NCBI GenBank assembly: GCA_000004985.1
Contig: GG738847.1
Direction: 5' to 3' (one strand)
Source of the DNA: Naegleria gruberi
Lineage: Eukaryota
Length of the DNA stretch: 64,000 nucleotides
The notes below the pieces were generated by a model. That model was given only the letters and a program-made list of their open reading frames with translations. It was not told the origin of the DNA and made no database searches. Position 1 is the stretch's first letter. Each line of letters begins with the position of its first letter. The position numbers and the translations under genes were made by a program. Below are positions 1,087 to 52,374 of the stretch, in pieces.

Positions 1087-1205
1087 GGCTACGGCCATAT
1101 CACGATTCATGCACCTCATCCCGTCCGATTTGAGAAGTTAAGCATCGTCGAGCCACATCAGTACTGAGGTTGGAGACAACTTGGGAACCTGTGGTGCTGT
1201 AGTCT
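1087..1205 (+). rRNA. 5S ribosomal RNA gene (dispersed chromosomal copy) followed by a T5 run
   Basis: GGCTACGGCCATATCACGATTCATGCACCTCATCCCGTCCGATTTGAGAAGTTAAGC...AGTACTGAGGTTGGAGACAACTTGGGAACCTGTGGTGCTGTAGTC. The 5' and 3' ends pair (GGCTAC with GTAGTC, allowing G-U). Internal GGTTGGAGACAAC and GGGAAC blocks resemble Dictyostelium 5S. A TTTTT pol III terminator follows immediately at 1206-1210. Confidence 0.85.
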
Positions 1206-2749: not shown

Positions 2750-3565
2750 ATGATCAAAACAATTCTTGCTACCATTGCAGCAATTTCAACTTCAATTGGT
2801 TTTGGAGTTTTGGCTACACAACCCACGAGACAAGATCCTTATGGGGAATCTGTTATTTCACAAAATTCGAATAATCCTTCGTCTATTGTTCAAACTAATC
2901 TAGATGCCGCTATCAAGTATGAAAATTTGCAGCGTGAAGTTGAAATTATCAATCAAAAAATTCAAGATTTAATGTCACAACTTTCCACTCAGGGAAAATT
3001 AATCGAAACTTTGAAAACTAAACTGGAAATGGTAGAATTGAAATGGGTAACTTCTATTGTGGAATTAACAAGGAAACAAGATGGAGTTATTTGGACTTGT
3101 TTGATTGCAGGAGGTGGATTATTAACAATTTTCCTTATTTACAAGTTTATTTTAAGGAAGAAGAAAGTTTTTTCAAAGTTATTCGAAACAAATTCATCTC
3201 CTCCTCAGAAAGTCCCAAATCCAAAACCTTCTACAATTCTGTACTATTACCTTGCAGAGAAGGAATTTTTTGATGTACATTTTCAAAAAATACTCTCCTC
3301 ACTCAATTCTCATTCGAATGTTAAATTTGAAAGAGTTTCCAATCAATCTCAAAGTCATTTCACAATTCTAAACTTTAGCAATAGACAGAGAATGGGTAAT
3401 AACGTTCCAGATTCCATCAATCAATACCTTTCCATTGGTGGGAATGTGAACAGCACTGAATGGGCTAATAATGAAGTGAGATTATTTAGTGATGAGAATG
3501 GAAATGTTGATTGGAATGAAGATGTCATTGAAACTCTTATTAAGCTGGGAAATAAATTAGATTAA
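2750..3565 (+). CDS. Hypothetical secreted/type-I membrane protein with coiled coil
   Basis: 271-aa ORF. Signal-peptide-like N-terminus MIKTILATIAAISTSIGFGVLA. Heptad-rich segment (EVEIINQKIQDLMSQLSTQGKLIETLKTKLEMVELK). One TM helix WTCLIAGGGLLTIFLIYKFIL followed by RKKK. No recognisable catalytic motif. Confidence 0.45.
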   Translation: MIKTILATIAAISTSIGFGVLATQPTRQDPYGESVISQNSNNPSSIVQTNLDAAIKYENLQREVEIINQKIQDLMSQLSTQGKLIETLKTKLEMVELKWVTSIVELTRKQDGVIWTCLIAGGGLLTIFLIYKFILRKKKVFSKLFETNSSPPQKVPNPKPSTILYYYLAEKEFFDVHFQKILSSLNSHSNVKFERVSNQSQSHFTILNFSNRQRMGNNVPDSINQYLSIGGNVNSTEWANNEVRLFSDENGNVDWNEDVIETLIKLGNKLD

Positions 3566-3744: not shown

Positions 3745-5214
3745 CTATTTGTATTCAAGTAAATTATTAAAAACCCATCTAACAATTATGTTTTTAACTG
3801 CAAGACTCTTAATTTCAAGTGGTTGTGCAAAGGCATGACTAATCTTTGCTTCTTTGTCACCATTAAAACTAATCAAAGCATCAATAATATTGTCCAAGTC
3901 ACGTCCTTTCAATTTGAGGTTTTGGGACTCTTCTTCATCCAATCCAACACCTTGCTCAGCATCTAATAATACCACTTTAACTTGCTCAGGGCTCCAACTT
4001 TTTGGCCTGCTTTTATCCAATAGATTATCTTGGATAATTAACATTCCACAAGCTCTTTGTAATGTTTTTGAGTTTGATGCTTGATTGGCATGCATTTGAG
4101 AGGATCCAATATTTGATGTCAAAGGAGTGTATGAAGATTCAATGCTTGAAAAAGAAGGTTTTTGGGGGAATCCAACATGATAACAAATCATTTTTCTATA
4201 CAGTTCTTCCTTTTTCTGGGTGTGGTCATGAAACAGAGTATACAAATCCTTGCTTAATAAATTCTCTAAGCCTTTTTTAGTTAACAATAGAACTTCGAAA
4301 CCTCCTTTTTTCAATTTCAACCAAGATTTTGTTCCAAATTTTGGCTTTGTGTAGCTTATTGTTTCATTCTCTAGATAGCATGTTCCTGTTATAAGAAGAG
4401 ATCCATAATTATTCGCATTTTTTTCTATAACTCGAAGTACGCTATCTGAATATCCCATAACTACCATTATTACTGTGAAGTGTAAATTTTCTCCATTCAA
4501 AGATGGCTTTTCTTCAACTGAATAGGTATTGGGTAAAAAAGCCGATGCTTGATTGATTTCTTCTTGCAACTTTGATAAAGAAAAATCCTTTTCATAGAGT
4601 TTCATTTCAAATAATAACAATTTTCTTAATACTTGTAATGGAGTTTTGTTCAGTGCTATCAATACATCAAATCCACTATTAATTTCTCCAGGAATAGCTG
4701 CACAAAATTGATTTTCACTCATAGCATCGTCTAACACTGAGGTGAATGATACGTAATTTGGATGTAGGTAATTACTAAACCCCATCTCTTGATCGTACTG
4801 TTGTTTTGTGCTAATTGGTGAAAATCCAGGGATTAAAATATTTTGTGTTAAAAAATTGGGAGGTAACTCTAAACTACTAAAAAATGTTTCTTTGAAAATC
4901 CCGCCACATAAATCCCCAAATACAGTAATTTCGTTCGTTTTTGTAAAAGAGAGAGTCAATATTTGTTCAGCTAATAAATCAATGACTGATAATTCCAACG
5001 CCTTTGAAGTGTGGAGTAAAATGGAATTATTTTGCAACAAATTATAGCGCACTCCACTTATTGATGTTTTGAATTTTGATAATTTCATTAAAATATCATC
5101 TTTTAGTAGCTTGGGTATATTAATCTTGACAGTCTTATCTTCCATGACTTGAAAATGCATTTTTAAATATGGAAGTATTTCAATAAAGTTTCTGTGCCTC
5201 TTATTAAAGTACAA
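3745..5214 (-). CDS. C-terminal continuation (or separate downstream cistron) of the P-loop NTPase gene; no recognisable domain
   Basis: 489 sense codons in the same frame as 5218..6489. The first ATG (MHFQVMEDK...) is only 57 nt after the TAG. A separate promoter in that space is implausible. Confidence 0.4.
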   Translation of the reverse strand: MYFNKRHRNFIEILPYLKMHFQVMEDKTVKINIPKLLKDDILMKLSKFKTSISGVRYNLLQNNSILLHTSKALELSVIDLLAEQILTLSFTKTNEITVFGDLCGGIFKETFFSSLELPPNFLTQNILIPGFSPISTKQQYDQEMGFSNYLHPNYVSFTSVLDDAMSENQFCAAIPGEINSGFDVLIALNKTPLQVLRKLLLFEMKLYEKDFSLSKLQEEINQASAFLPNTYSVEEKPSLNGENLHFTVIMVVMGYSDSVLRVIEKNANNYGSLLITGTCYLENETISYTKPKFGTKSWLKLKKGGFEVLLLTKKGLENLLSKDLYTLFHDHTQKKEELYRKMICYHVGFPQKPSFSSIESSYTPLTSNIGSSQMHANQASNSKTLQRACGMLIIQDNLLDKSRPKSWSPEQVKVVLLDAEQGVGLDEEESQNLKLKGRDLDNIIDALISFNGDKEAKISHAFAQPLEIKSLAVKNIIVRWVFNNLLEYK

Positions 5215-5217
5215 TTT

Positions 5218-6489
5218 CTAAAACTCATTAAACTGAAAACTAAAGAATTCTACACTTACTGTTTGAGATGGTATGGCAATACCAAAGGAATGGAGTAAAT
5301 ATAAATGAGCTACCAATTTGGCTTGTTCATCATTGCGCAGAGCAATCGTCACATCGTGTTGTTTTTGCTCAGATTTTTCAATAGCTTCACATATTTTCTC
5401 TTTTGATGATAAATTATTCAAGTTACGCAAAATGCTATTGAATGCATTTTCCATTATTCTTGGAGCAGTTCCAGTATATTCCACAAGAATATCTATGAAA
5501 TCATCAATATCATTTAAGCCTAACAATTGTAAAGCATCCAATAGTGTGATACACGAATTACCTTTTTGAACATGACTCTGTCTGAGCATGATTTCGACGA
5601 CCTGGTTTTCCATAGGTGACAGAAATACAAGACAGTAATCAGAAGGTGGACTTTTTTTAACATCTTGATTCTCTGTCAAAGCTAAGTGTACAGGAATATG
5701 ACCACTAAATATAACAGTGCTCTTATAGGGGATCAGAAGTGGCATTACTTCATTCCATAATTCTAGAAAGCGACTCAAATAAATATCACAACCTTCTTTA
5801 CATGTTGTCCATTTCGAGTCTTGCAATAGTTGCCCAAAATTATTCTGTAAAATTCCATCTACTTCATCAACAAGTACTAAATATCCTTCAGGTAAGGATG
5901 AATCAATATTTAAAGCTTCAAAAATAAGGTTAGCTCCATAATCGTTTTGGTTTGCAAAATCCAACATCTTTTGGTAAAAATCTTGTCTTTTCTGTAAAAG
6001 ATCTTGTGATCCATTTGGTTGGAATTTTGTTATAAATTGCTTGCAATATTCCTTAACCACGAAATCAGCAATTTTTTTGCTCATATCTGAAATACTTTCT
6101 TCCGAAGAGACTTTAAATAATCTAAAATCCAATTCAAATAGCTGTAAATCTTTCACCCATTCCGATTGTTGATCCCATTTTCCATATACCTCTCTAAATC
6201 TTCTGACCAAGGTTGTTTTACCAATACCAAAGGTTTGAAAAAGCGACACTAATTTAGCTTGGCTCAAGTTTTGTTGCTTCTTGTTTTGCACTAAAGTATT
6301 AACAATTCGTTCCGACTCATTTTCACGATTAACAAATTTAAGTTGTAATGCAGAGTTTTTGAGGTCTTCTTTTGTTATTAATACATGAGTCTGTGGAGAA
6401 GAGAAAGGTTTGGTGGTTTCGGGTTCTTGTTTTTGCTTTTTGTTTTTAGGACCATCACCTGCCATTACACATTTTGTGCATTTTTTCAT
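5218..6489 (-). CDS. P-loop NTPase (STAND/AAA-like), N-terminal segment; reading frame continues past an in-frame TAG into ORF 3745..5214
   Basis: 423-aa ORF. Walker A LVSLFQTFGIGKTTLVRRF. Walker B YLVLVDEVDG. The TAG at 5215-5217 is followed in the same frame by 489 more sense codons. Confidence 0.55.
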   Translation of the reverse strand: MKKCTKCVMAGDGPKNKKQKQEPETTKPFSSPQTHVLITKEDLKNSALQLKFVNRENESERIVNTLVQNKKQQNLSQAKLVSLFQTFGIGKTTLVRRFREVYGKWDQQSEWVKDLQLFELDFRLFKVSSEESISDMSKKIADFVVKEYCKQFITKFQPNGSQDLLQKRQDFYQKMLDFANQNDYGANLIFEALNIDSSLPEGYLVLVDEVDGILQNNFGQLLQDSKWTTCKEGCDIYLSRFLELWNEVMPLLIPYKSTVIFSGHIPVHLALTENQDVKKSPPSDYCLVFLSPMENQVVEIMLRQSHVQKGNSCITLLDALQLLGLNDIDDFIDILVEYTGTAPRIMENAFNSILRNLNNLSSKEKICEAIEKSEQKQHDVTIALRNDEQAKLVAHLYLLHSFGIAIPSQTVSVEFFSFQFNEF

Positions 6490-7364: not shown

Positions 7365-8126
7365 ATGATGAGATTAGTTTGCAAAGATTGGAACGAAACT
7401 TTTATTAATTCTCATGATTTCTGGTACAGTATGATGATTACCAATTTGGATAAGGGTATGAAAGCAAGAGGAATTGAAGAGAAGGTTGAAATTCTTTCAC
7501 ATCCCAATCGAAACAATACTCAGTTCATGTTAAATTGTATTCGAAACTGTTTTCTTGCTCAACAATCGATTGACTGTTTGAAATCAGTGGAAGCCGAACA
7601 ATCAATGTGTTATGAGCCTGCTATCCTTAACGAATCCAATGACGAATTAGTTTCCGAAATGATTCGCCAACTTTCACCTTACATCTTTATCCAGAAAACC
7701 TCTTTTGATTTCTTTTCTTATGATCAATCAGAATGTGAATATGATTTTATCATTCCAAATATTCAAGGAAATACCGAATTGACTGAACTATATTTTAAAG
7801 TTTATAGATGCGATTAAGGATGTGGTAATGGTTCACTACTAAGATCTATTGAAGTAGTTTTCCAAGAAGAAAAAGAAATTCTAAAAAATGAAGTTTGCTA
7901 CGAGTATGATGGCTCACGCTCAGAATACGTTGCAGATAAGGAGATGATTAAGGTTGTTATGGAGAGAATTGGGTTGAGTGCAGAAATGATAAAATCTAAA
8001 GCTTGTTTCGATGAATTTATGATTGCATTGTATTATAAAGCAGTTGTGGGAGTAATTCCTATTGCTCTATGTGAAAGAGATATGTTTTATATTGATAGAA
8101 CAAGCAGAATAAAAGATATTATGTAA
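7365..8126 (+). CDS. Hypothetical F-box-like protein; ORF interrupted by in-frame TAA at 7815-7817
   Basis: ORFs 7365..7817 and 7944..8126 are in the same frame (579 nt apart) with a single TAA between them. The frame is open upstream to 7266, encoding LVQEIVAFLANDEDKSNIGQILMMRLVCKDW (F-box-like L..EI..F and VCK.W) with no in-frame ATG. An ATG at 7330 is offset by 1 nt. Confidence 0.4.
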
Positions 8127-8197: not shown

Positions 8198-9556
8198 TTA
8201 TTGCTTCTTATTAGCCTTCATTCTTTCCCTTAATTTATTCTTAGAATCGGATGAATTCATTTGAGCTTTTTGTTGTTCCATTCTCAATTTCTCGTAATGT
8301 TTTACTGTCCAGTCACCTCCTTCAATTGAGTAAAAGTCCATTGGATAGATTGGTCTCCATTCAGTGGCTGTTAAAGCTACCTCAGCTTCATAGGCAGTCA
8401 GTAATGGTTTATCAAAGAAGTGACCCCAATCGATTGAGAGACGAGGACAAGCAATTTGAATCCAACACTCAACATCGTGGAATAGTTGAAGTTTGCTTGG
8501 GAAAATTTCACTCAAAAGGAGAGAAACATATGGAATATTCTTTTCGTTCAGTAATCGTTCAATAGTTTCAAGAATTTTTGGAGAACCTTGTCTACCCAAA
8601 GTTCCTAGAATTACACCAAACTTTTTGGCTTTCTTTGCCTTTTCAATGGCATCTTGTCTGATGGAAAATAATTGTGGATGATCATAGTGTTCCTCTGTGA
8701 ATTTCTTTCCATATGGATCATATTTGTAATATTTCAATTCTGGATTTTGAATCATGACACTTTCCAAATGGAATCTACCATCTCCCAAATAAACCATAGT
8801 TTCAATTTGATGATTTTTAGCTAAATCTTTTGGACTTGTGCAACCCAGAACTTCACCAGGTGACAATGGTTTAACTTGAGGAATAAATACAGGAGTTGTG
8901 AAATGTTTGTCCAATTCTGCCTTGGCAGTTCTTAAACTTGAAACAAATTGAATAGTTGCAACCATAGCCATTTTGGTTTCTTTTGGAAAGTTGTTAATCA
9001 TTGATTGAACAAAATAATTAATATCAATTTGAATATCCACAAAAACGTATAGAATATTCTTAATGCAACAATCACTGACAGGAACAAGACAACTGTGAGC
9101 ATAATGCACCATGAAATCAGCACCCAAAGCTCTAGCAGTAAGATCATCTATACAGCATGCTCCGTATGTGACATCTCCCATAATTACTGTACTTGTTTCT
9201 GGACAAAATCTTTCAATAATATCACTAATCACACAACTAAACAAGAGCAATCCTTCAGGAAATTGCAAAGCAACTCTCTTTGGTTTAATTTGTTGAATTC
9301 TATGAATAGTTTTATGAATTTCAAAATTATAATTTGTTGGAAGTGTTTCCTTGATGAGTCTATTCAATTCTTCGTTTTCTAAAATTGAAGCAGGAACACT
9401 TTGTTGTAATTTAATACTAGATGAAAGATTAACTCCTGCATATGGATTTGATTGTTGTTGTTGTTCAGGAGTTTGTCCAATATTGTTGTTATTGTTATTA
9501 CTATCTTCCGATGATGAAGAAGAAACGGCAACAAGACTTGTTTCTTGATTTTCCAT
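8198..9556 (-). CDS. DPH1: Diphthamide biosynthesis protein 1 (2-(3-amino-3-carboxypropyl)histidine synthase subunit 1)
   Basis: 452-aa single-exon ORF. Hallmark DPH1 blocks [60 protein letters not shown] and [12 protein letters not shown]-terminal Ser/Asn/Gln low-complexity extension. Confidence 0.9.
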
Positions 9557-9757: not shown

Positions 9758-10168
9758 TTAGACCTTTGGAATATCATTATATTCGGTTAGTTTAGAAATA
9801 CGATCGTTAAATTCATTGATTTTTTCTCTGTAGGATTTTTGAGCTCTTTCCTTGATGAGTTTCTTCTTTCTTTCCATCGATTTGGTTTCATATTTTTGTT
9901 CGGCTTCAGTCTTTTCCACTACAATTGCCTTTTGATTAGAGTTGTTATTATTTGTTTTATGTTGTTTGGTAATTCCGCCAATTGTTCCTGTTCTACCTTT
10001 TAATTTAAGTGGTCCTTTAATGACATTATCAAAGGAGAGGGAATATTTGTGTGCGTCATCATCGTGGTGGTGATGATCACTACCACTCTTCGGAGTAGTG
10101 GTTGCAGTTGTTGTTGTATTACTACTCGCTCTTTGATTGTTGTTTGATGAAGAAGTGTTTGGTTTCAT
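9758..10168 (-). CDS. FAM32A (OTAG-12)-like small nuclear protein
   Basis: 136-aa ORF. KGPLKLKG motif, Lys-rich middle and C-terminal EFNDRISKLTEYNDIPKV. These match the FAM32A family ends (KGPLKLKG ... DFNRHLDTLTEHYDIPKV). Confidence 0.75.
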   Translation of the reverse strand: MKPNTSSSNNNQRASSNTTTTATTTPKSGSDHHHHDDDAHKYSLSFDNVIKGPLKLKGRTGTIGGITKQHKTNNNNSNQKAIVVEKTEAEQKYETKSMERKKKLIKERAQKSYREKINEFNDRISKLTEYNDIPKV

Positions 10169-10334: not shown

Positions 10335-11294
10335 ATGCAACTGTTATCTTCAGAAGTTCTCATCACAGTTTTTGATTTTCTGCTCGATATTTCCAATAAT
10401 TGCATAAATATTTATGATTGTGAAATTAGAAAAGTAATTTTTTCACTTCAATCAGTCAACTCTCAATTCAAGCAATTTTATGATGAAAATTATTGGTGGG
10501 AAGTATTGAAAACTCATCTATTGATGAGTCACTCTGTATTGTCAATGTCCGAGAAGGAGATTGTCATGAATATGAAAGAGAAATTGAAACAAAATCCATC
10601 TTTCCAATCATTTCGAAGATGTACTTTATTATTCGAAATGATGAGACGAAAGGGATTTGGTTTAAAAATGAATGATATGAATAATGAAAATGTATTATTT
10701 AATAAGATATTAATTATTGGAATGAAGGGTGTTGGAAAAACCAAATGCATATTAAATTACGTCTATTCTAATGCTTTCCCATATAATCACGAAATTGCAA
10801 TTGAGGATAGCTATAGGAAAATGTCACATTACATTGAAAAGTTTCCAGTGATTGTAGAATTATTCGAGTTAATTGAAATCAATCCAATTAGTGATTACAA
10901 TTTGAAATACGTTAACGAGTCTAACATTGTTATTGTAATGTGTGAATTATATTCTGAAGAATCAGTTCAGTATTTGGAGAGTACTTTATTTCCAGCTATG
11001 GAGGATAAAATAGCAAACCTTCCAACTTTAATTGTAATTAATGATAAGCTCAATAAGGAAAATCATACAAAAAAACGAATTAAGAAACAAAATATCAAAT
11101 CAATTCTAGAAAAGTTTAAAATTCATAATTATTCATTCATAGATATAAGTACAAGTAATTATTCAACGATTGTAAATTTATTTTCTCATTGTACTACTAT
11201 TTTTGCTTTTACATTCCAACAAAATATTGAACTTGTAGAAGTAATTTTAAAAAAGGATAAGAAATTACTCTCCAAAAATTGTGTAATCAATTAA
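10335..11294 (+). CDS. F-box-like N-terminus fused to a degenerate Ras-like small-GTPase domain (predicted pseudo-GTPase)
   Basis: 319-aa ORF. N-terminal LSSEVLITVFDFLLDIS (F-box-like). G1 ILIIGMKGVGKTK. Switch-I-like YNHEIAIEDSYRKM (compare Ras YDPTIEDSYRKQ, where the T35 equivalent is Ala here). No DTAGQ G3 motif (VIVELFELIE instead). G4 degraded to INDKLN. Confidence 0.55.
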   Translation: MQLLSSEVLITVFDFLLDISNNCINIYDCEIRKVIFSLQSVNSQFKQFYDENYWWEVLKTHLLMSHSVLSMSEKEIVMNMKEKLKQNPSFQSFRRCTLLFEMMRRKGFGLKMNDMNNENVLFNKILIIGMKGVGKTKCILNYVYSNAFPYNHEIAIEDSYRKMSHYIEKFPVIVELFELIEINPISDYNLKYVNESNIVIVMCELYSEESVQYLESTLFPAMEDKIANLPTLIVINDKLNKENHTKKRIKKQNIKSILEKFKIHNYSFIDISTSNYSTIVNLFSHCTTIFAFTFQQNIELVEVILKKDKKLLSKNCVIN

Positions 11295-32998: not shown

Positions 32999-35018
32999 TT
33001 ATTTTCTCTTGACAGTAGTACTGGTTGTTGGAGGTTTTTTACCTCTGAGAGGTGTAGCTGATTTTGCAGGAGCTTTCTTTTTCGGTGTTTGCTTTGGTTT
33101 TGAGCTCGATTGAGGTTCCTCAGCTCTTTTTCTGCACTTCCTTAGGGTTTTTATAATGTCGTCAATATTTTCTCTATCGATATTTCTTTGAATATCCATA
33201 CTGTGAAATCTTTTGGAATTGACCTTCTTTTTCTCTTCGGTGGGTTCAGACTTTTCCAATGCAGTTCTATTTCCTCCATTAAAGTCGTCGAATATTTTCT
33301 GTTTGAAATTAGATCAATTTGAATTGAAAATTTGTACTTACATATTTACATGATCTTTCTGTGAATAGATCAATAGAATCTTCTCTTTCATCCTCGTCTT
33401 CATCTTCGGTCTCTTCTTTCCTAATTTTAAGTTTTAGCAGTTCAATATCATCCACCTCATCTTCCACTTCGGTTTTTTGAGATGATTCAGAGTCTCCAAC
33501 ACCAATGAATGGTATTAGAACATCAGCATGTTTTGAAAATAGGGCATTAAGTGATTTGTCTACAACAGCAAGATCTTGATCTTGATATTCTACAATGGTA
33601 TGGTTCTTTGAACAACAACCTTTTTGAACAAGAATGCCACTATTAAATTTCAACGCCTTAGCTCCACAACATGGATGCTCTCCTACTATCGTTCCCTTAT
33701 CGAACCTTGCTTCTTTTTTGTGATAGGTACAGTGGCCATATTCAGCAGCAACAAAATTTTGTCTACATTTAGAGCAAAAGTATGAATGGACTAAACTCCA
33801 ACATCTCCAATAAATATCTCTCCAGCTCATTCCTGATTTTTTCAACTTGTACAAATATCCGTCAATATTCCATATCTTGTCCACAGTGTGTCTGGAAATT
33901 GCTCTACCATGAAAATCTACCTGAATTTTTGCCTTCTCACTATTGCACACCATCCATTCATATTGTGATTTGGTAAACATTGTTTGGCAATGTTGACATT
34001 TGTATATTGTAAACTCCTCATCTTCCAATAAATCTTCCAATTTTTTCATAAATAGTTTGCTTAATATTTTATCCTTCTTATCCTTAACATCGTCCAATTC
34101 GTAATCCTTGAATCGTAAAGATAATCTTTCCAATAGATCATGCTGAATACAATCCAAATCAATTGGAAGTTTAAGTATACTGTCAATGTGATCTCGAACA
34201 TAATCTAAAGTTCTCTCAACCAGAGAATCCATTTCAAGGAAATGAGACGATATTAAAATTGAAATAGCCCAGTTCACTTCTAACTTTGGCGCGGAGAGTG
34301 GATCCTTCTTAATGTAATCCATCAACCATTGAAAAATATTTACATCACAGTGGACTGAAATATCAATTTCCTCATTCTTTGCTTTTGGTTGCAATAAATA
34401 ATATTTAAAGTATTTCATTTCATTCATTAATAAATCTCTATTGCACACAAAATCCTTATTCACTTTGTTGGCATCATCATGAACGTGGATTGTAATTTCA
34501 TCAACATTCTTCTTTCTTGGCGATTTGTATTCTGTTGATTGTGTTTGGTAATTTTGATACCCAGTTGGACTTAATGATGAAGGCTGTTGAAATGATCCTT
34601 GAATTGATTGTTGATAGGAATTTGTTGGAGAAGGTTGATATGATGATTGCATCAAATGTTCGGGATACATTACTTCTCCAATAGATGATGAAGTTGATTT
34701 AGTCATTGCATTATCAACGGATGAAGCCACCGAAGGAGCATTATCATAAATTACACTCCCTGTATCAAAATCCTGAGAAATATAATATCCCTGCCTCGAA
34801 TCAACTATTGACTTTCCTTTAATCATTGTTGTTCCTTGTGGCTTCTTTTTTGTATTCACTTCTAAGGGTTTCATTCCACCATTAGATTGTATCGGAAATC
34901 TTTGAGCACTCACGTAGAGGTTATAATCTCCTCCCTCTGGCGTGGCTGTCGTTGTCGTTGCTGTAGGCCCCTTGATGGAGGACAAGTCTTGTCTGAACGA
35001 AGAGAAGCCATTAAACAT
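32999..35018 (-). CDS. BTB/POZ-domain protein with C-terminal Cys/His-rich region (KIAA1841/SANBR-like by pattern); 2 exons (35018-33342, 33298-32999)
   Basis: BTB-like block ITIHVHDDANKVNKDFVCNRDLLMNEMKYFKYYL. C-terminal YKCQHCQTMF...YWRCWSLVHSYFCSKCRQNF...GEHPCCGAKALKF...GCCSKNH. Exon 1 ends ...RSCKY before donor GTAAGT. A 43-nt intron (33299-33341) ends in ...CAAACAG, and exon 2 continues in frame as KIFDDFNGG...TVKRK. Confidence 0.6.
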
Positions 35019-43415: not shown

Positions 43416-44089
43416 TTATTCTTGCATGGCATCAGCTGGAAGTGTTTGATCTGAGAACAAGTCAACTTCTCTGCTACCATACTTATCTACAACTTTTACA
43501 ATAAATGATGGTGTGTTCAATAAAAGTCTCTTTTGAATTTCAGCAACACACATTCTTAAAACAATCAATGCTTCATTAAGATTCATTCCGTCCTTGTAAT
43601 GCTTGTCAAGAATTGACAATGTAAAGTAAGATCCGTAGCCATGAGCTCCATATTTAACTTCTTGCATACTTGAAAGATAATCGATATAATATAATTCAGG
43701 TTTAGCTCCTAATTATCCAATGGTAAATATTAAAATATTGATCTCAACTCACCTTCAATATCATCAACACCTCCGACCATAATATTGGTTTGATATGGAC
43801 CACTACGAAGGGCTTTAGCTAATTCTTGTCTCACAAAGTGTGCACTAGCTTTCACTGACAAGTTTGTATCATTTCTTAAACGGTACAAGTTCAAATTCTT
43901 TGTGATGAATTCGACAAATTGAACACGATCTCCTTGTTCTCCTTGAGCAGCAATAAGAATATTTTGATTTGGTACAGCTGTTATTTTGTCCTCAGTATCC
44001 TTCATCAAAATGATCGAGAATGAAGCTGTTGTATCAGCTGCCAACAAGGTGAAATCCTTTCCTTTCAATCCAATAACTGTGTCTCCCAT
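43416..44089 (-). CDS. PSMB2: Proteasome subunit beta type-2; 2 exons (44089-43753, 43708-43416) with 44-nt intron
   Basis: MGDTVIGLKGKDFTLLAADTTASFSIILMKDTEDKI...VQFVEFITKNLNLYRLRNDT...IMVGGVDDIEG, then donor GTGAGT and acceptor ATAATTAG, then GAKPELYYIDYLSSMQEVKYGAHGYGSYFTLSILDKHYKDGMNLNEALIVLRMCVAEIQKRLLLNTPSFIVKVVDKYG. This is collinear with human PSMB2. Confidence 0.85.
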
Positions 44090-47288: not shown

Positions 47289-49128
47289 ATGAAACCTTTA
47301 AATCAAGCCTCCAAAATTATTGCTCAACAATTCTTCTACAGAGGCAAATTCATCAAACCAACAACCATAACAACAAGTTTGAATCAATTAAAATTCAATC
47401 CTTCTTTAATTGTTAATAATGGAGTGCAACATCAAAATGCTACTTCCCGTTCCTTTTCCATCATCAATAATAATACATTATTCTCTCATTCCCTCATGAT
47501 GCAAGAAGAAGAAGGAGCTAGAGTATCATCCACCAACAACAACAATTCTTCATCGTCATCAATGGCAACATCAAATAATTTGAACAAAAAAATGCCAGAA
47601 GAACAACAACAACAAAACAAGAGAAAATTCAATCATCACAACAATAGAAATAAAAAAAACAAGAAAGTCAAGAAGGAGAAACCAAGCAATGTTATTGAAG
47701 CTGTGACTCCTTTGGCCCAGTAAGTATTGTTGATTGTGGTTTTTATGTGAATTTACGTATCGGATTTTAATAGTTTGACCTATGAAGAACAATTGGTCAA
47801 GAAGGAAGGTGAAACATTGGATTGTATGAGAGAAATGTTTTCTGAAATTAAGAAGAGTTATGGTACAGCAGAACTCCCAGAATACTATACTATTCAACCA
47901 GAAGATGAAAAATTGAAGGATGTTCATTTGACTTGGTGTGGTATTTTGTCATCACCACAAACTGAAGGATATAGAAATAATTGTGAATTTACTTGTGGAT
48001 ACAATTCTGAAGATAAACCAACTGTTGGATTTAGACAAGGTTTATTTTCTCAAGGAATTTTCAATGCCGAAAGTCCAAAAGATGTCAAAATTGTTTCTGA
48101 TAGTATGAAGAGAGCTGTTTTGGTTTTACAAAAATTTATTGAACAACATCACGATACATACAAGGTATGTTGTTTTGTGAACTATTTAATAATTACATTA
48201 ATTGTAGTGTTATGCTCAAAAAACCCATACTGGATTGTGGAGATTGATGAAAGTCAGAGAAAATAGAAATGGAGAAATGCTCATCATTGTTCAAATTAAT
48301 CCAACTGAAATTTCTGAAGAAGCTATGCAAACAATCAAAACTAATCTCATCTCTCACTTTAAATCATTCGATAAGAACGAATCATCAGATCTTTCTATTA
48401 ACGTTAAGGGATTATTCTTGCAACAACATACAGGCGTCAGCAATGCTGCTCCAACTGATGCTCCTTTGGATTTGCTCTATGGAGAACAAACTATTGTTGA
48501 GGAAGTTTTGGGATTGAAGTTTAATATTTCTCCAATGAGCTTCTTCCAAGTTAACACTAAAGGTGTTGAGGTTTTATATTCAAAGGTCAAGGAATGGACA
48601 TTAGAATCTATGGATAAGGAGTCTAATAAGGAACGTGTTTTATTGGATGTTTGCAGTGGTACAGGTACTATTGGTTCTACAATGGCTAGCTCTGTCAGCA
48701 GAGTTATTGGTATTGAAATGGTTGAAAGCTCTGTAAATGATGCCAGGAAGAATGCTCAATTGAACAATATTCAAAATATTACTTTTGTTTGTGGAAAGGC
48801 TGAAGATACAATTACAACCAAGATGGTTGAACATAACTTGAATTCATCTAATGTTGAATGTGTAGCTGTTGTAGATCCTCCAAGATCAGGTCTTCACAAG
48901 AAGGTTCTTGAATCAATTTTGAGATCTCCAACAATTGAAAAATTAATTTATGTTTCATGTAATCCAAAGACATTGGTTGAAAATGCTATTAGACTTTGCG
49001 GACCAACATCAACAGTTAGAGCCAGTTATGGTGCATTCAAACCTGTTAAGGCTATTGCTGTTGACATGTTCCCTCACACTGAACATTGTGAAATGATTTG
49101 CGTTTTTGAAAGAAAGCTTAAGAAATAA
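47289..49128 (+). CDS. TRMT2A: tRNA (uracil-5-)-methyltransferase, TrmA/TRMT2A family; 3 exons (47289-47719, 47774-48164, 48208-49128)
   Basis: Low-complexity N-terminus. Exon 2 LTYEEQLVKKEGETLDCMREMF...YRNNCEFTCGY...GFRQG (TRMT2A-like LTYAEQL..., RNKCEF). Exon 3 ...TGLWRLMKVRENRNGEMLIIVQINPTEISEEAMQTIKTNLISHF. SAM-methyltransferase motifs VLLDVCSGTGTIGSTMAS and VVDPPRSGL. C-terminal catalytic Cys region YVSCNPKTL. Introns are 54 and 43 nt (GTAAGT and GTATGT donors). Confidence 0.8.
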
Positions 49129-51020: not shown

Positions 51021-52294
51021 ATGGGCAAGAGAAGCCGCACAATTGATCAAGACAAGGATCTTGAGGAAGCAAGAGAACCACAAGAGATGAATCTTTATGA
51101 TCACTTATCGAGTTTGTATGATAGTTGTAATGGAGAGAATGAAGAAGGAGCAAATAATAATAATAATAACACTATTATTGTTCCTCCGAATGTTATTGTA
51201 AAGACTTCGTTTAAAGATTTTAATGTTCATGAATTTGCAGTCAAGAGAAGTGGCTTATTTAGAACCATGATTGATTCGAATGAACAGTGGAAATTGGGAA
51301 AAGTTGATGATAAATTCAATATTGATTTGACAAGTGTTGAAGGCTCTATTTCAACAGAGGGAGAACCTTTGAAAAAAAAAGATTTTGAAATCATTTTCCG
51401 ATATTTGTATTGTGATGATTTTAATTGTTATATGGGTACTTCAACCTTGAAAAGAATTATTGACATGGCCAAATATTTGGATATTCCCTCTCTTATCACA
51501 AAGATACTTGATGGAATTCAATTTTCACTTAAATATTTCCCAATCAAGTACTCATTGAAAGGAGAGTTGACTGAGCATGAGATTGTTGATCTAATTTTCA
51601 AATTAACTAATCGATTTAAAAATAATTACGGCGAAGAAGTGAAAGGATATTCGAATGAACTAATCTCATATATTTGCCAACAACAATTGGTTCCTCTATT
51701 TATCAAAGTTAACCTTTTACAACGTCATTTAACACAAAATAACAAAGGGGTTGTGATTACAAAAGAAATGCTGCAACCATTTTCAGAATGCATCAAAAAA
51801 ATGAGAAAGGAATCCAAATACTTATTACCAAACCAATCTGAGAACATTGACCCAACAATGTTCAAATTATTGGAATTGAAACAGCCAAAAGAAAATCCAT
51901 GCAAACGCAAACACTATCGTTGTGCTGATACTGTTTATATTTCTATGGGAGCAGAAGAAGACTCAGGTGAGGTAAGTGAGAAATTTTATATAATAGTTAT
52001 TAACAATTTTAACCAATTGTTAAGGATTTTCATTTATTTGATGGTAAGGTTCGTATAGATGTTTCATGTGCTTCCAGGAGCTCAGCTTTTTGGTGGGATC
52101 TCACCTTTCAAAACGATCTCGCCAATGAGGAAATTAAACTAGCTTACAAAATATTCTACCAAGCTAATGTTGGTTCTAAACAGGAAGCAATAACAGAAAT
52201 TGACGATATTTCTGCAACAGAAACAATTTATGCACCCCAATTCGATACTGGTGGATTTTATGCTAACTTTCTCTTCTTTTTCAAAAGAAATTAG
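51021..52294 (+). CDS. BTB/POZ-domain protein; 2 exons (51021-51971, 52025-52294) with 53-nt intron
   Basis: BTB-like block TIIVPPNVIVKTSFKDFNVHEFAVKRSGLFRTMIDSNEQ. Exon 1 ends ...EEDSGE before donor GTAAGT. Exon 2 is DFHLFDGKVRIDVSCASRSSAFWWDLTFQNDLANEEIKLAYKIFYQANVGS...FFFKRN. Confidence 0.55.
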
Positions 52295-52374
52295 ATTCCT
52301 AATTCACTTAAATTTCATGTAAATGTTTCTTGCAATAAACAGTTTATTGTAAACATTAGTTTTCTTACAAAAAA

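Follow-up and report, generated by a model that had tools for sequence, protein, structure and literature searches.

On the minus strand of a Naegleria gruberi contig (GG738847.1, assembly GCA_000004985.1), positions 6489..3745 of the window read best as one two-exon gene with a 42-nt U2-type GT-AG intron and a 900-aa product, with a probability of about 0.93 on the sequence evidence. The window is the whole stretch of DNA that was analysed, 64,000 nucleotides in length. A preliminary description had presented the locus as a P-loop NTPase gene interrupted by a single in-frame TAG. In the two-exon gene, the spliceosome would excise 5259..5218 and the apparent nonsense codon would be the acceptor site. 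From comparative and anatomical evidence, we infer that the 42-nt intron is spliced in vivo. The predicted gene structure is as follows:

Exon 1, 5260..6489, minus strand: ATG at 6489-6487; codons 1-410, ending in ...AIPSQT; FVNRE motif and putative AAA+/STAND-like P-loop NTPase domain.
Intron, 5218..5259, minus strand: 42 nt, phase 0, GT-AG, sequence GTAAGTGTAGAATTCTTTAGTTTTCAGTTTAATGAGTTTTAG.
Exon 2, 3745..5217, minus strand: codons 411-900 and the TAG stop at 3747-3745; begins with KLYFNKRHRNFIEILP...

Before splicing, the minus strand holds an ORF at 6489..5218 (423 aa and a stop) and an open frame at 5217..3745, which together form one frame with a sole TAG in between. Two same-frame ORFs parted by one TAG had already been described (6489..5218 and 5214..3745), and this layout is indeed seen on the minus strand. 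The TAG had been placed at 5215-5217; its actual coordinates are 5220-5218, and exon 2 opens with the AAA codon at 5217-5215. The window has a GC content of ~33%, and at this base composition an open frame of 490 codons has a chance probability of ~1e-16. Thus, both halves are taken to be coding. A six-frame scan of the 64-kb window was run for pairs of open frames, each of at least 150 codons, with a single stop between them, and this locus was the sole instance. The first ATG in the downstream ORF lies 57 nt beyond the TAG (5160), in agreement with the spacing of 57 nt between two cistrons given in the preliminary description.

On the minus strand, the donor GTAAGT occupies 5259-5254 and begins precisely between two codons. 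The acceptor TTTTAG ends at 5218, with the acceptor AG forming the final two bases of the in-frame TAG. Once the 42 nt are removed, ...AIPSQT runs straight into KLYFNKRH... within a 900-aa ORF, and the predicted spliced junction is ...CCATCTCAAACA joined to AAATTGTACTTT.... The features by which a U2-type GT-AG intron is recognized are found here: a consensus donor extension, a YAG acceptor, a frame restored by excision, colinearity with the homologue, and a length within the range of the organism. There is a candidate TTAAT branch-like motif, with its A 10 nt from the intron 3′ end; YTRAY-like motifs occur in four of the five comparison introns, a very small sample.

A 27-nt candidate intron (GTAAGT...TTTCAG) upstream of the TAG had been pointed out earlier. 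It is present in the sequence, and the TAG stays in frame after its removal. The donor GTAAGT was correctly recognized; the pairing of this donor solely with the CAG at 27 nt was wrong, the next AG being that of the TAG itself. As an intron, the 27-nt stretch was rejected, as it leaves FNEF and the stop in frame and conflicts with the homologue alignment.

Introns of 43-44 nt are normal in the N. gruberi genome. A scan of the window for long open frames that a GT[AG]AGT...YAG intron could connect gave a 44-nt intron at 43752..43709 in a proteasome beta gene and a 43-nt intron at 33341..33299 in NAEGRDRAFT_62377. The spliced products are identical to XP_002682514.1 and XP_002682511.1, respectively. 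The Pfam domains Proteasome and Guanylate_cyc remain unbroken when the 44-nt intron and a 59-nt intron are spliced out. In a study of N. fowleri, the minimum intron length was set at 30 bp after inspection of the gene models (PMC8296547). The intron described here resembles the short U2-type introns of Naegleria in its GT[AG]AGT donor, its YAG acceptor, its length (42-44 nt in this group) and its AT-rich composition (~25% GC). Unlike the 43- and 44-nt introns, it has a length that is a multiple of three (3n) and a sole in-frame stop that is the acceptor itself. Left unspliced, the exons therefore resemble a single ORF with one nonsense codon in it.

A search with the spliced product against 5.8 billion proteins found two relatives: ABK040_011008 of Willaertia magna (863 aa, 66% identity) and NAEGRDRAFT_51871 of N. 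gruberi (835 aa). The W. magna protein aligns gap-free over the junction (...IPVQT followed by KLYFNKRHRNFIEILP...) and omits exactly 14 codons, namely VSVEFFSFQFNEF and the stop. The W. magna gene comprises 2636 nt for 863 codons, and the sole deletion that reproduces the protein is that of a 44-nt intron, GTAAGTTTG...CTGTTAG. This intron resides at the identical codon boundary, and the donor hexamer GTAAGT is also identical. The preliminary description had proposed that the orthologous locus of related species be compared for one continuous ORF; what the W. magna gene holds at the same codon boundary is an intron and not a continuous ORF. The W. magna intron stems from an automatic gene model, and is supported independently by the protein alignment and by frame arithmetic. 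When the DNA of the two species is aligned, the exon flanks share ~85% identity, and most of the changes in them are synonymous; the introns, by contrast, have diverged in sequence and are unequal in length by 2 nt.

These comparisons bear on the other explanations of the TAG. Programmed readthrough or recoding would fit the continuous frame on either side of the TAG, but is scarcely credible at this locus. The other genes of the window use the standard code, with long ORFs identical to reference proteins, and the peptide VSVEFFSFQFNEF, which readthrough would insert, is missing from the homologues. As the insert of 44 nt is not a multiple of three, the W. magna intron cannot be read through. 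The comparison with W. magna is thus taken to rule out both readthrough and an ancestral continuous ORF.

It could also be argued that a once-continuous ORF gained the TAG, leaving a nonsense allele or pseudogene. The lone stop between two long frames has this appearance, the protein of the locus is absent from the reference set, and a sister strain has a frameshifting deletion elsewhere in the gene. Nonetheless, this origin is very unlikely. The 13 codons ahead of the TAG are without counterpart in the homologues, and the 44 nt that correspond to them in W. magna disrupt the frame and form an annotated intron. The flanking frames are both intact across 900 codons, and a canonical GTAAGT...YAG delimits exactly the stretch that is not conserved.

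On a metagenome contig, a prokaryote-style gene caller starts the downstream protein at MHFQVM, as would suit two independent cistrons with the second translated from the ATG at 5160 or the TTG at 5214. However, the 16 residues that lie between the splice site and the first ATG are identical in W. magna, and six of the six nucleotide differences in their codons are synonymous. Since coding conservation begins right after the AG, upstream of the first ATG, two cistrons are considered ruled out, and any residual chance of them is exceedingly slim. The homologues are single polypeptides covering both halves, which likewise speaks against two cistrons. The earlier view that the two ORFs are parts of one gene holds: removal of the 42-nt intron joins their frames.

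The ENA and Logan assemblies from run ERR1078381 contain an N. gruberi-like strain that is ~98.7% identical over the gene. Both the TAG and the intron recur in this strain, the intron with a single G-to-A change. A substitution error in sequencing or assembly, for which prior probability is the one argument, is next to impossible as the source of the TAG: both assemblies of the strain share the TAG and its surroundings, and the same TAG in an independent assembly of a second strain is not a sequencing error. The evidence thus contradicts all four explanations that had been listed as remaining, namely a nonsense allele, a substitution error, readthrough and two cistrons; pairing of the GTAAGT donor with the TAG acceptor would excise the stop.

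In exon 2 of the ERR1078381 copy, there is a 41-nt frameshifting deletion (window 4284..4244) and an additional deletion of 6 nt. Comparison of this copy with the window over the gene gives 10 synonymous and 15 non-synonymous substitutions. It is probably decaying in this strain, and the frameshift suggests that members of the NTPase family can decay.

The W. magna gene is the closest full-length relative found. Its neighbouring genes are not in common with those of the N. gruberi locus, the NTPase gene alone being shared, and the C-terminus of its protein differs from that of the N. gruberi protein; orthology is thus not claimed in the strict sense. NAEGRDRAFT_51871 is located on another scaffold and is therefore regarded as a paralogue. 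Around the homologous junction, its gene model lacks ~90 aligned residues; among those missing is a YTG..PRIMxN motif conserved among distant relatives. This gap suggests a mis-modelled intron in the paralogue.

Since the intron length is divisible by three, translation of any unspliced transcript would run in frame to the stop inside the intron and yield a truncated product, as is commonly the case for short introns of 3n length. It is possible, if unlikely, that retention of the intron is regulated, or that the CAG at 27 nt is used, resulting in an ATPase-only isoform of 414-423 aa or an NMD target; this would add to the two-exon gene and not replace it. The 3n length with an in-frame stop is compatible with such regulation, as is a second acceptor-like TTTCAG 15 nt upstream of the acceptor, but conservation in W. 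magna does not extend to this inner CAG. Stop-containing short introns of 3n length have been reported as coupled to NMD in other eukaryotes (PMC5014332, PMC2911113). Separately, the CAG at 27 nt might act as a competing acceptor, and its use would give a truncated product.

The following features were located in the predicted 900-aa protein:

Walker A GIGKTTL, 6208..6228, minus strand: aa 88-94; G-x-G-K-T invariant in three full-length homologues.
Walker B LVLVDEVD, 5857..5880, minus strand: aa 204-211; DEVD invariant in the homologues.
D...(E/Q)xK signature GFDVLIAL ... LLLFEMKLYEK, 4588..4674, minus strand: aa 592-620; possible PD-(D/E)xK nuclease core.
C-terminal SAM-like module of ~110 aa, 3748..4080, minus strand: aa ~790-900.

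The N-terminal domain is, on the structural model, an AAA+/STAND-like P-loop NTPase. Walker A GIGKTTL and Walker B LVLVDEVD, both named in the preliminary description, are found in the translation; the Walker consensus is seen in FGIGKTT (aa 87-93) and LVLVDE (aa 204-209), which are conserved in the homologues. The domain shows an AAA+-type alpha/beta fold with a helical lid. The matches in the fold search, with their scores, are the archaeal Walker-type ATPases 2qen (11.0) and 2fna (10.1), BrxC (10.5), Cdc6/ORC (9-10), TnsC (9.9), and NLRs and Apaf-1 (8.8-9.0). The earlier assignment to STAND or AAA+ NTPases thus agrees with the fold search, whereas classification with family HMMs, also suggested at the time, gave only a sub-threshold Pfam match. 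This match, the best for exon 1, is AAA_22 with an E-value of 0.018, its 15.8 bits falling short of the required 27; exon 2 has no Pfam match. The NCBIfam and PADLOC scans of the NTPase returned no match, and Pfam, NCBIfam and PADLOC gave no above-threshold NTPase family for the exons, the neighbours or the distant homologues. Sequence searches of the PDB with profiles returned nothing meaningful. Identity to the archaeal ATPases (2qen PABY2304, 2fna SSO1545), to Cdc6/ORC, BrxC and TnsC, and to STAND proteins (Apaf-1, plant NLRs) is 10-15%. Unlike these named archaeal, AAA+ and STAND systems, the N. gruberi NTPase is below the threshold of every Pfam family.

The family is small in the collections searched. 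An exhaustive HMMER search returned 34 relatives only, with N. gruberi and W. magna as the sole named organisms; the other relatives that were looked up are on environmental contigs. The metagenome scan gave a single N-terminal fragment that stops short of the junction, and the scan of viral contigs gave none.

The middle region of the protein may be a PD-(D/E)xK nuclease. Residues D594 and K615 are invariant in five distant family members, in a part of the model with a pLDDT <50; in a repeat AF2 run of aa 540-900, the putative nuclease region again has a pLDDT <50. The D...(E/Q)xK region has no Pfam, PADLOC or PDB sequence match. Low-Z fold matches to nucleases (AgeI, AddA, LmuA) were set aside, as the model of the putative nuclease region has a pLDDT <50. 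Architectures that combine an NTPase with a PD-(D/E)xK nuclease do exist, e.g., the AAA-ATPase_like/PDDEXK_9 proteins. The N. gruberi protein resembles these in having a P-loop NTPase followed by an invariant D...(E/Q)xK region; unlike them, its region is without a family match and the structure model is unreliable there.

The C-terminal module gives SAM matches, and the W. magna homologue carries a Pfam SAM_1 domain. In comparison with the SAM domains of SARM1/TIR-1, Ste50 and Shank3, the N. gruberi module is without a Pfam match and has an extra N-terminal beta-hairpin element. It has no sequence homology to the C-terminus of the W. magna protein, and is also present on an AAA_35 NTPase in Willaertia. 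The SAM-like module probably mediates oligomerisation. As a whole, the protein is likely to work as an NTPase that is nucleotide-switched and oligomerising, perhaps with a nuclease as its effector.

The neighbouring genes were identified by comparison with reference proteins. By exact look-up, the GTPase at 1266-2510 is the N. gruberi reference protein NAEGRDRAFT_78059, named “G domain-containing protein” in UniProt. Its P-loop GTPase motifs, G1 GGCGEGKSTLL and G3 DCPGF, are found in the translation as had been described. The further label of AIG1/IRG-like is not borne out, with no AIG1 or IIGP match at E <= 0.1; the best Pfam matches, Septin (20.8 bits, with 26.2 required) and GTP_EFTU, both fall below threshold. 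A homologue search with this protein found only one ENA fragment, which is 99% identical. Nor is the GTPase the immediate neighbour of the NTPase gene, as NAEGRDRAFT_62365 (2750-3565, opposite strand) sits between the two. A functional pairing of NTPase and GTPase is not supported, as the GTPase is not beside the W. magna homologue and another gene intervenes in N. gruberi. At 8198-9556, the DPH1 gene encodes a protein that matches an N. gruberi predicted protein with 100% identity. NAEGRDRAFT_78059 and NAEGRDRAFT_62365 are likewise exact matches, on the same contig as that protein, and the window is therefore assigned to N. gruberi strain NEG-M.

A doubtful, though conceivable, proposal is that the proteins form a fast-evolving conflict or innate-immunity-like family, combining an NTPase switch, a PD-(D/E)xK-type effector and an exchangeable SAM or SAM-like module, in heteroloboseans and on environmental contigs. 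Hints in this direction are the absence from the reference set, the apparent decay of the sister-strain copy and the occurrence of the C-terminal module on the AAA_35 NTPase. On this proposal, the 3n intron with its stop might serve as a further control on expression, via retention and NMD.

The locus appears to be unannotated in the reference protein set. The protein collection that was searched contains neither the spliced product nor the two ORFs separately (the second from its first ATG), and the neighbouring reference proteins are present in it. It therefore appears that the reference pipeline did not model the gene. The main value of the two-exon structure is thus a corrected annotation, namely a 900-aa N. 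gruberi gene that is apparently absent from the reference set. It also illustrates a general trap, in that a very short 3n intron with an in-frame acceptor TAG mimics a nonsense mutation in raw sequence. No unusual mechanism is indicated, and the protein family, as yet uncharacterised, is possibly worth study as a protist STAND-like system.

No protein from the NTPase locus (3745-6489, minus strand) occurs in a collection of 15 billion proteins, and the N. gruberi reference proteins of the adjoining genes are present there. The NTPase gene therefore seems to be absent from the reference annotation. The same collection holds no exact protein for the simple ORFs at 7365-7817 (plus strand), 9758-10168 (minus strand) and 10335-11294 (plus strand), so that the reference models at these positions, if there are any, must differ through extra exons or other starts. 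The last of these ORFs encodes an N-terminal extension of approximately 120 amino acids followed by a Ras-family domain.

The N. gruberi paralogue of the NTPase gene, NAEGRDRAFT_51871, is located on another scaffold of 337 kb. Around the homologous exon junction its gene model is missing roughly 90 residues, and the conserved YTG..PRIMxN motif is among them. This gap is probably the result of an over-long predicted intron replacing one of approximately 42 nt. Further introns of the GTAAGT...YAG type, together with an RNA gene, lie within the window:

20218-20160, minus strand, 59-nt intron of a PAS/adenylate-guanylate cyclase gene, verified by Pfam continuity
47720-47773, plus strand, candidate intron of 54 nt
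51972-52359, plus strand, candidate intron of 388 nt
1087-1205, plus strand, 5S rRNA gene, complete, matching Rfam RF00001 at 100.3 bits

The 5S rRNA gene lies a short distance beyond the GTPase gene, on its 3′ side. No tRNA genes were found by ARAGORN across the whole window.

The related strain, represented by the assemblies ENA ERZ929261 and Logan ERR1078381 from a run labelled “metagenome”, is N. gruberi-like and approximately 98.7% identical. Its NTPase gene carries 10 synonymous and 15 non-synonymous differences, as well as two deletions in exon 2:

equivalent to 4284..4244, frameshifting deletion of 41 nt
equivalent to approximately 4119, deletion of 6 nt

The gene in this strain is likely to be undergoing pseudogenisation, or relaxed or diversifying selection.

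The NTPase gene ends in a SAM-like module:

3748-4080, minus strand, SAM-like C-terminal module of approximately 110 amino acids

Copies of this module are also found in some 20 short environmental proteins, and the W. magna AAA_35/nSTAND1-type NTPase KAL9645503.1 ends with it, whereas the W. magna homologue of the NTPase gene has a classical SAM_1 domain in its place. The C-terminal module is a mobile unit.
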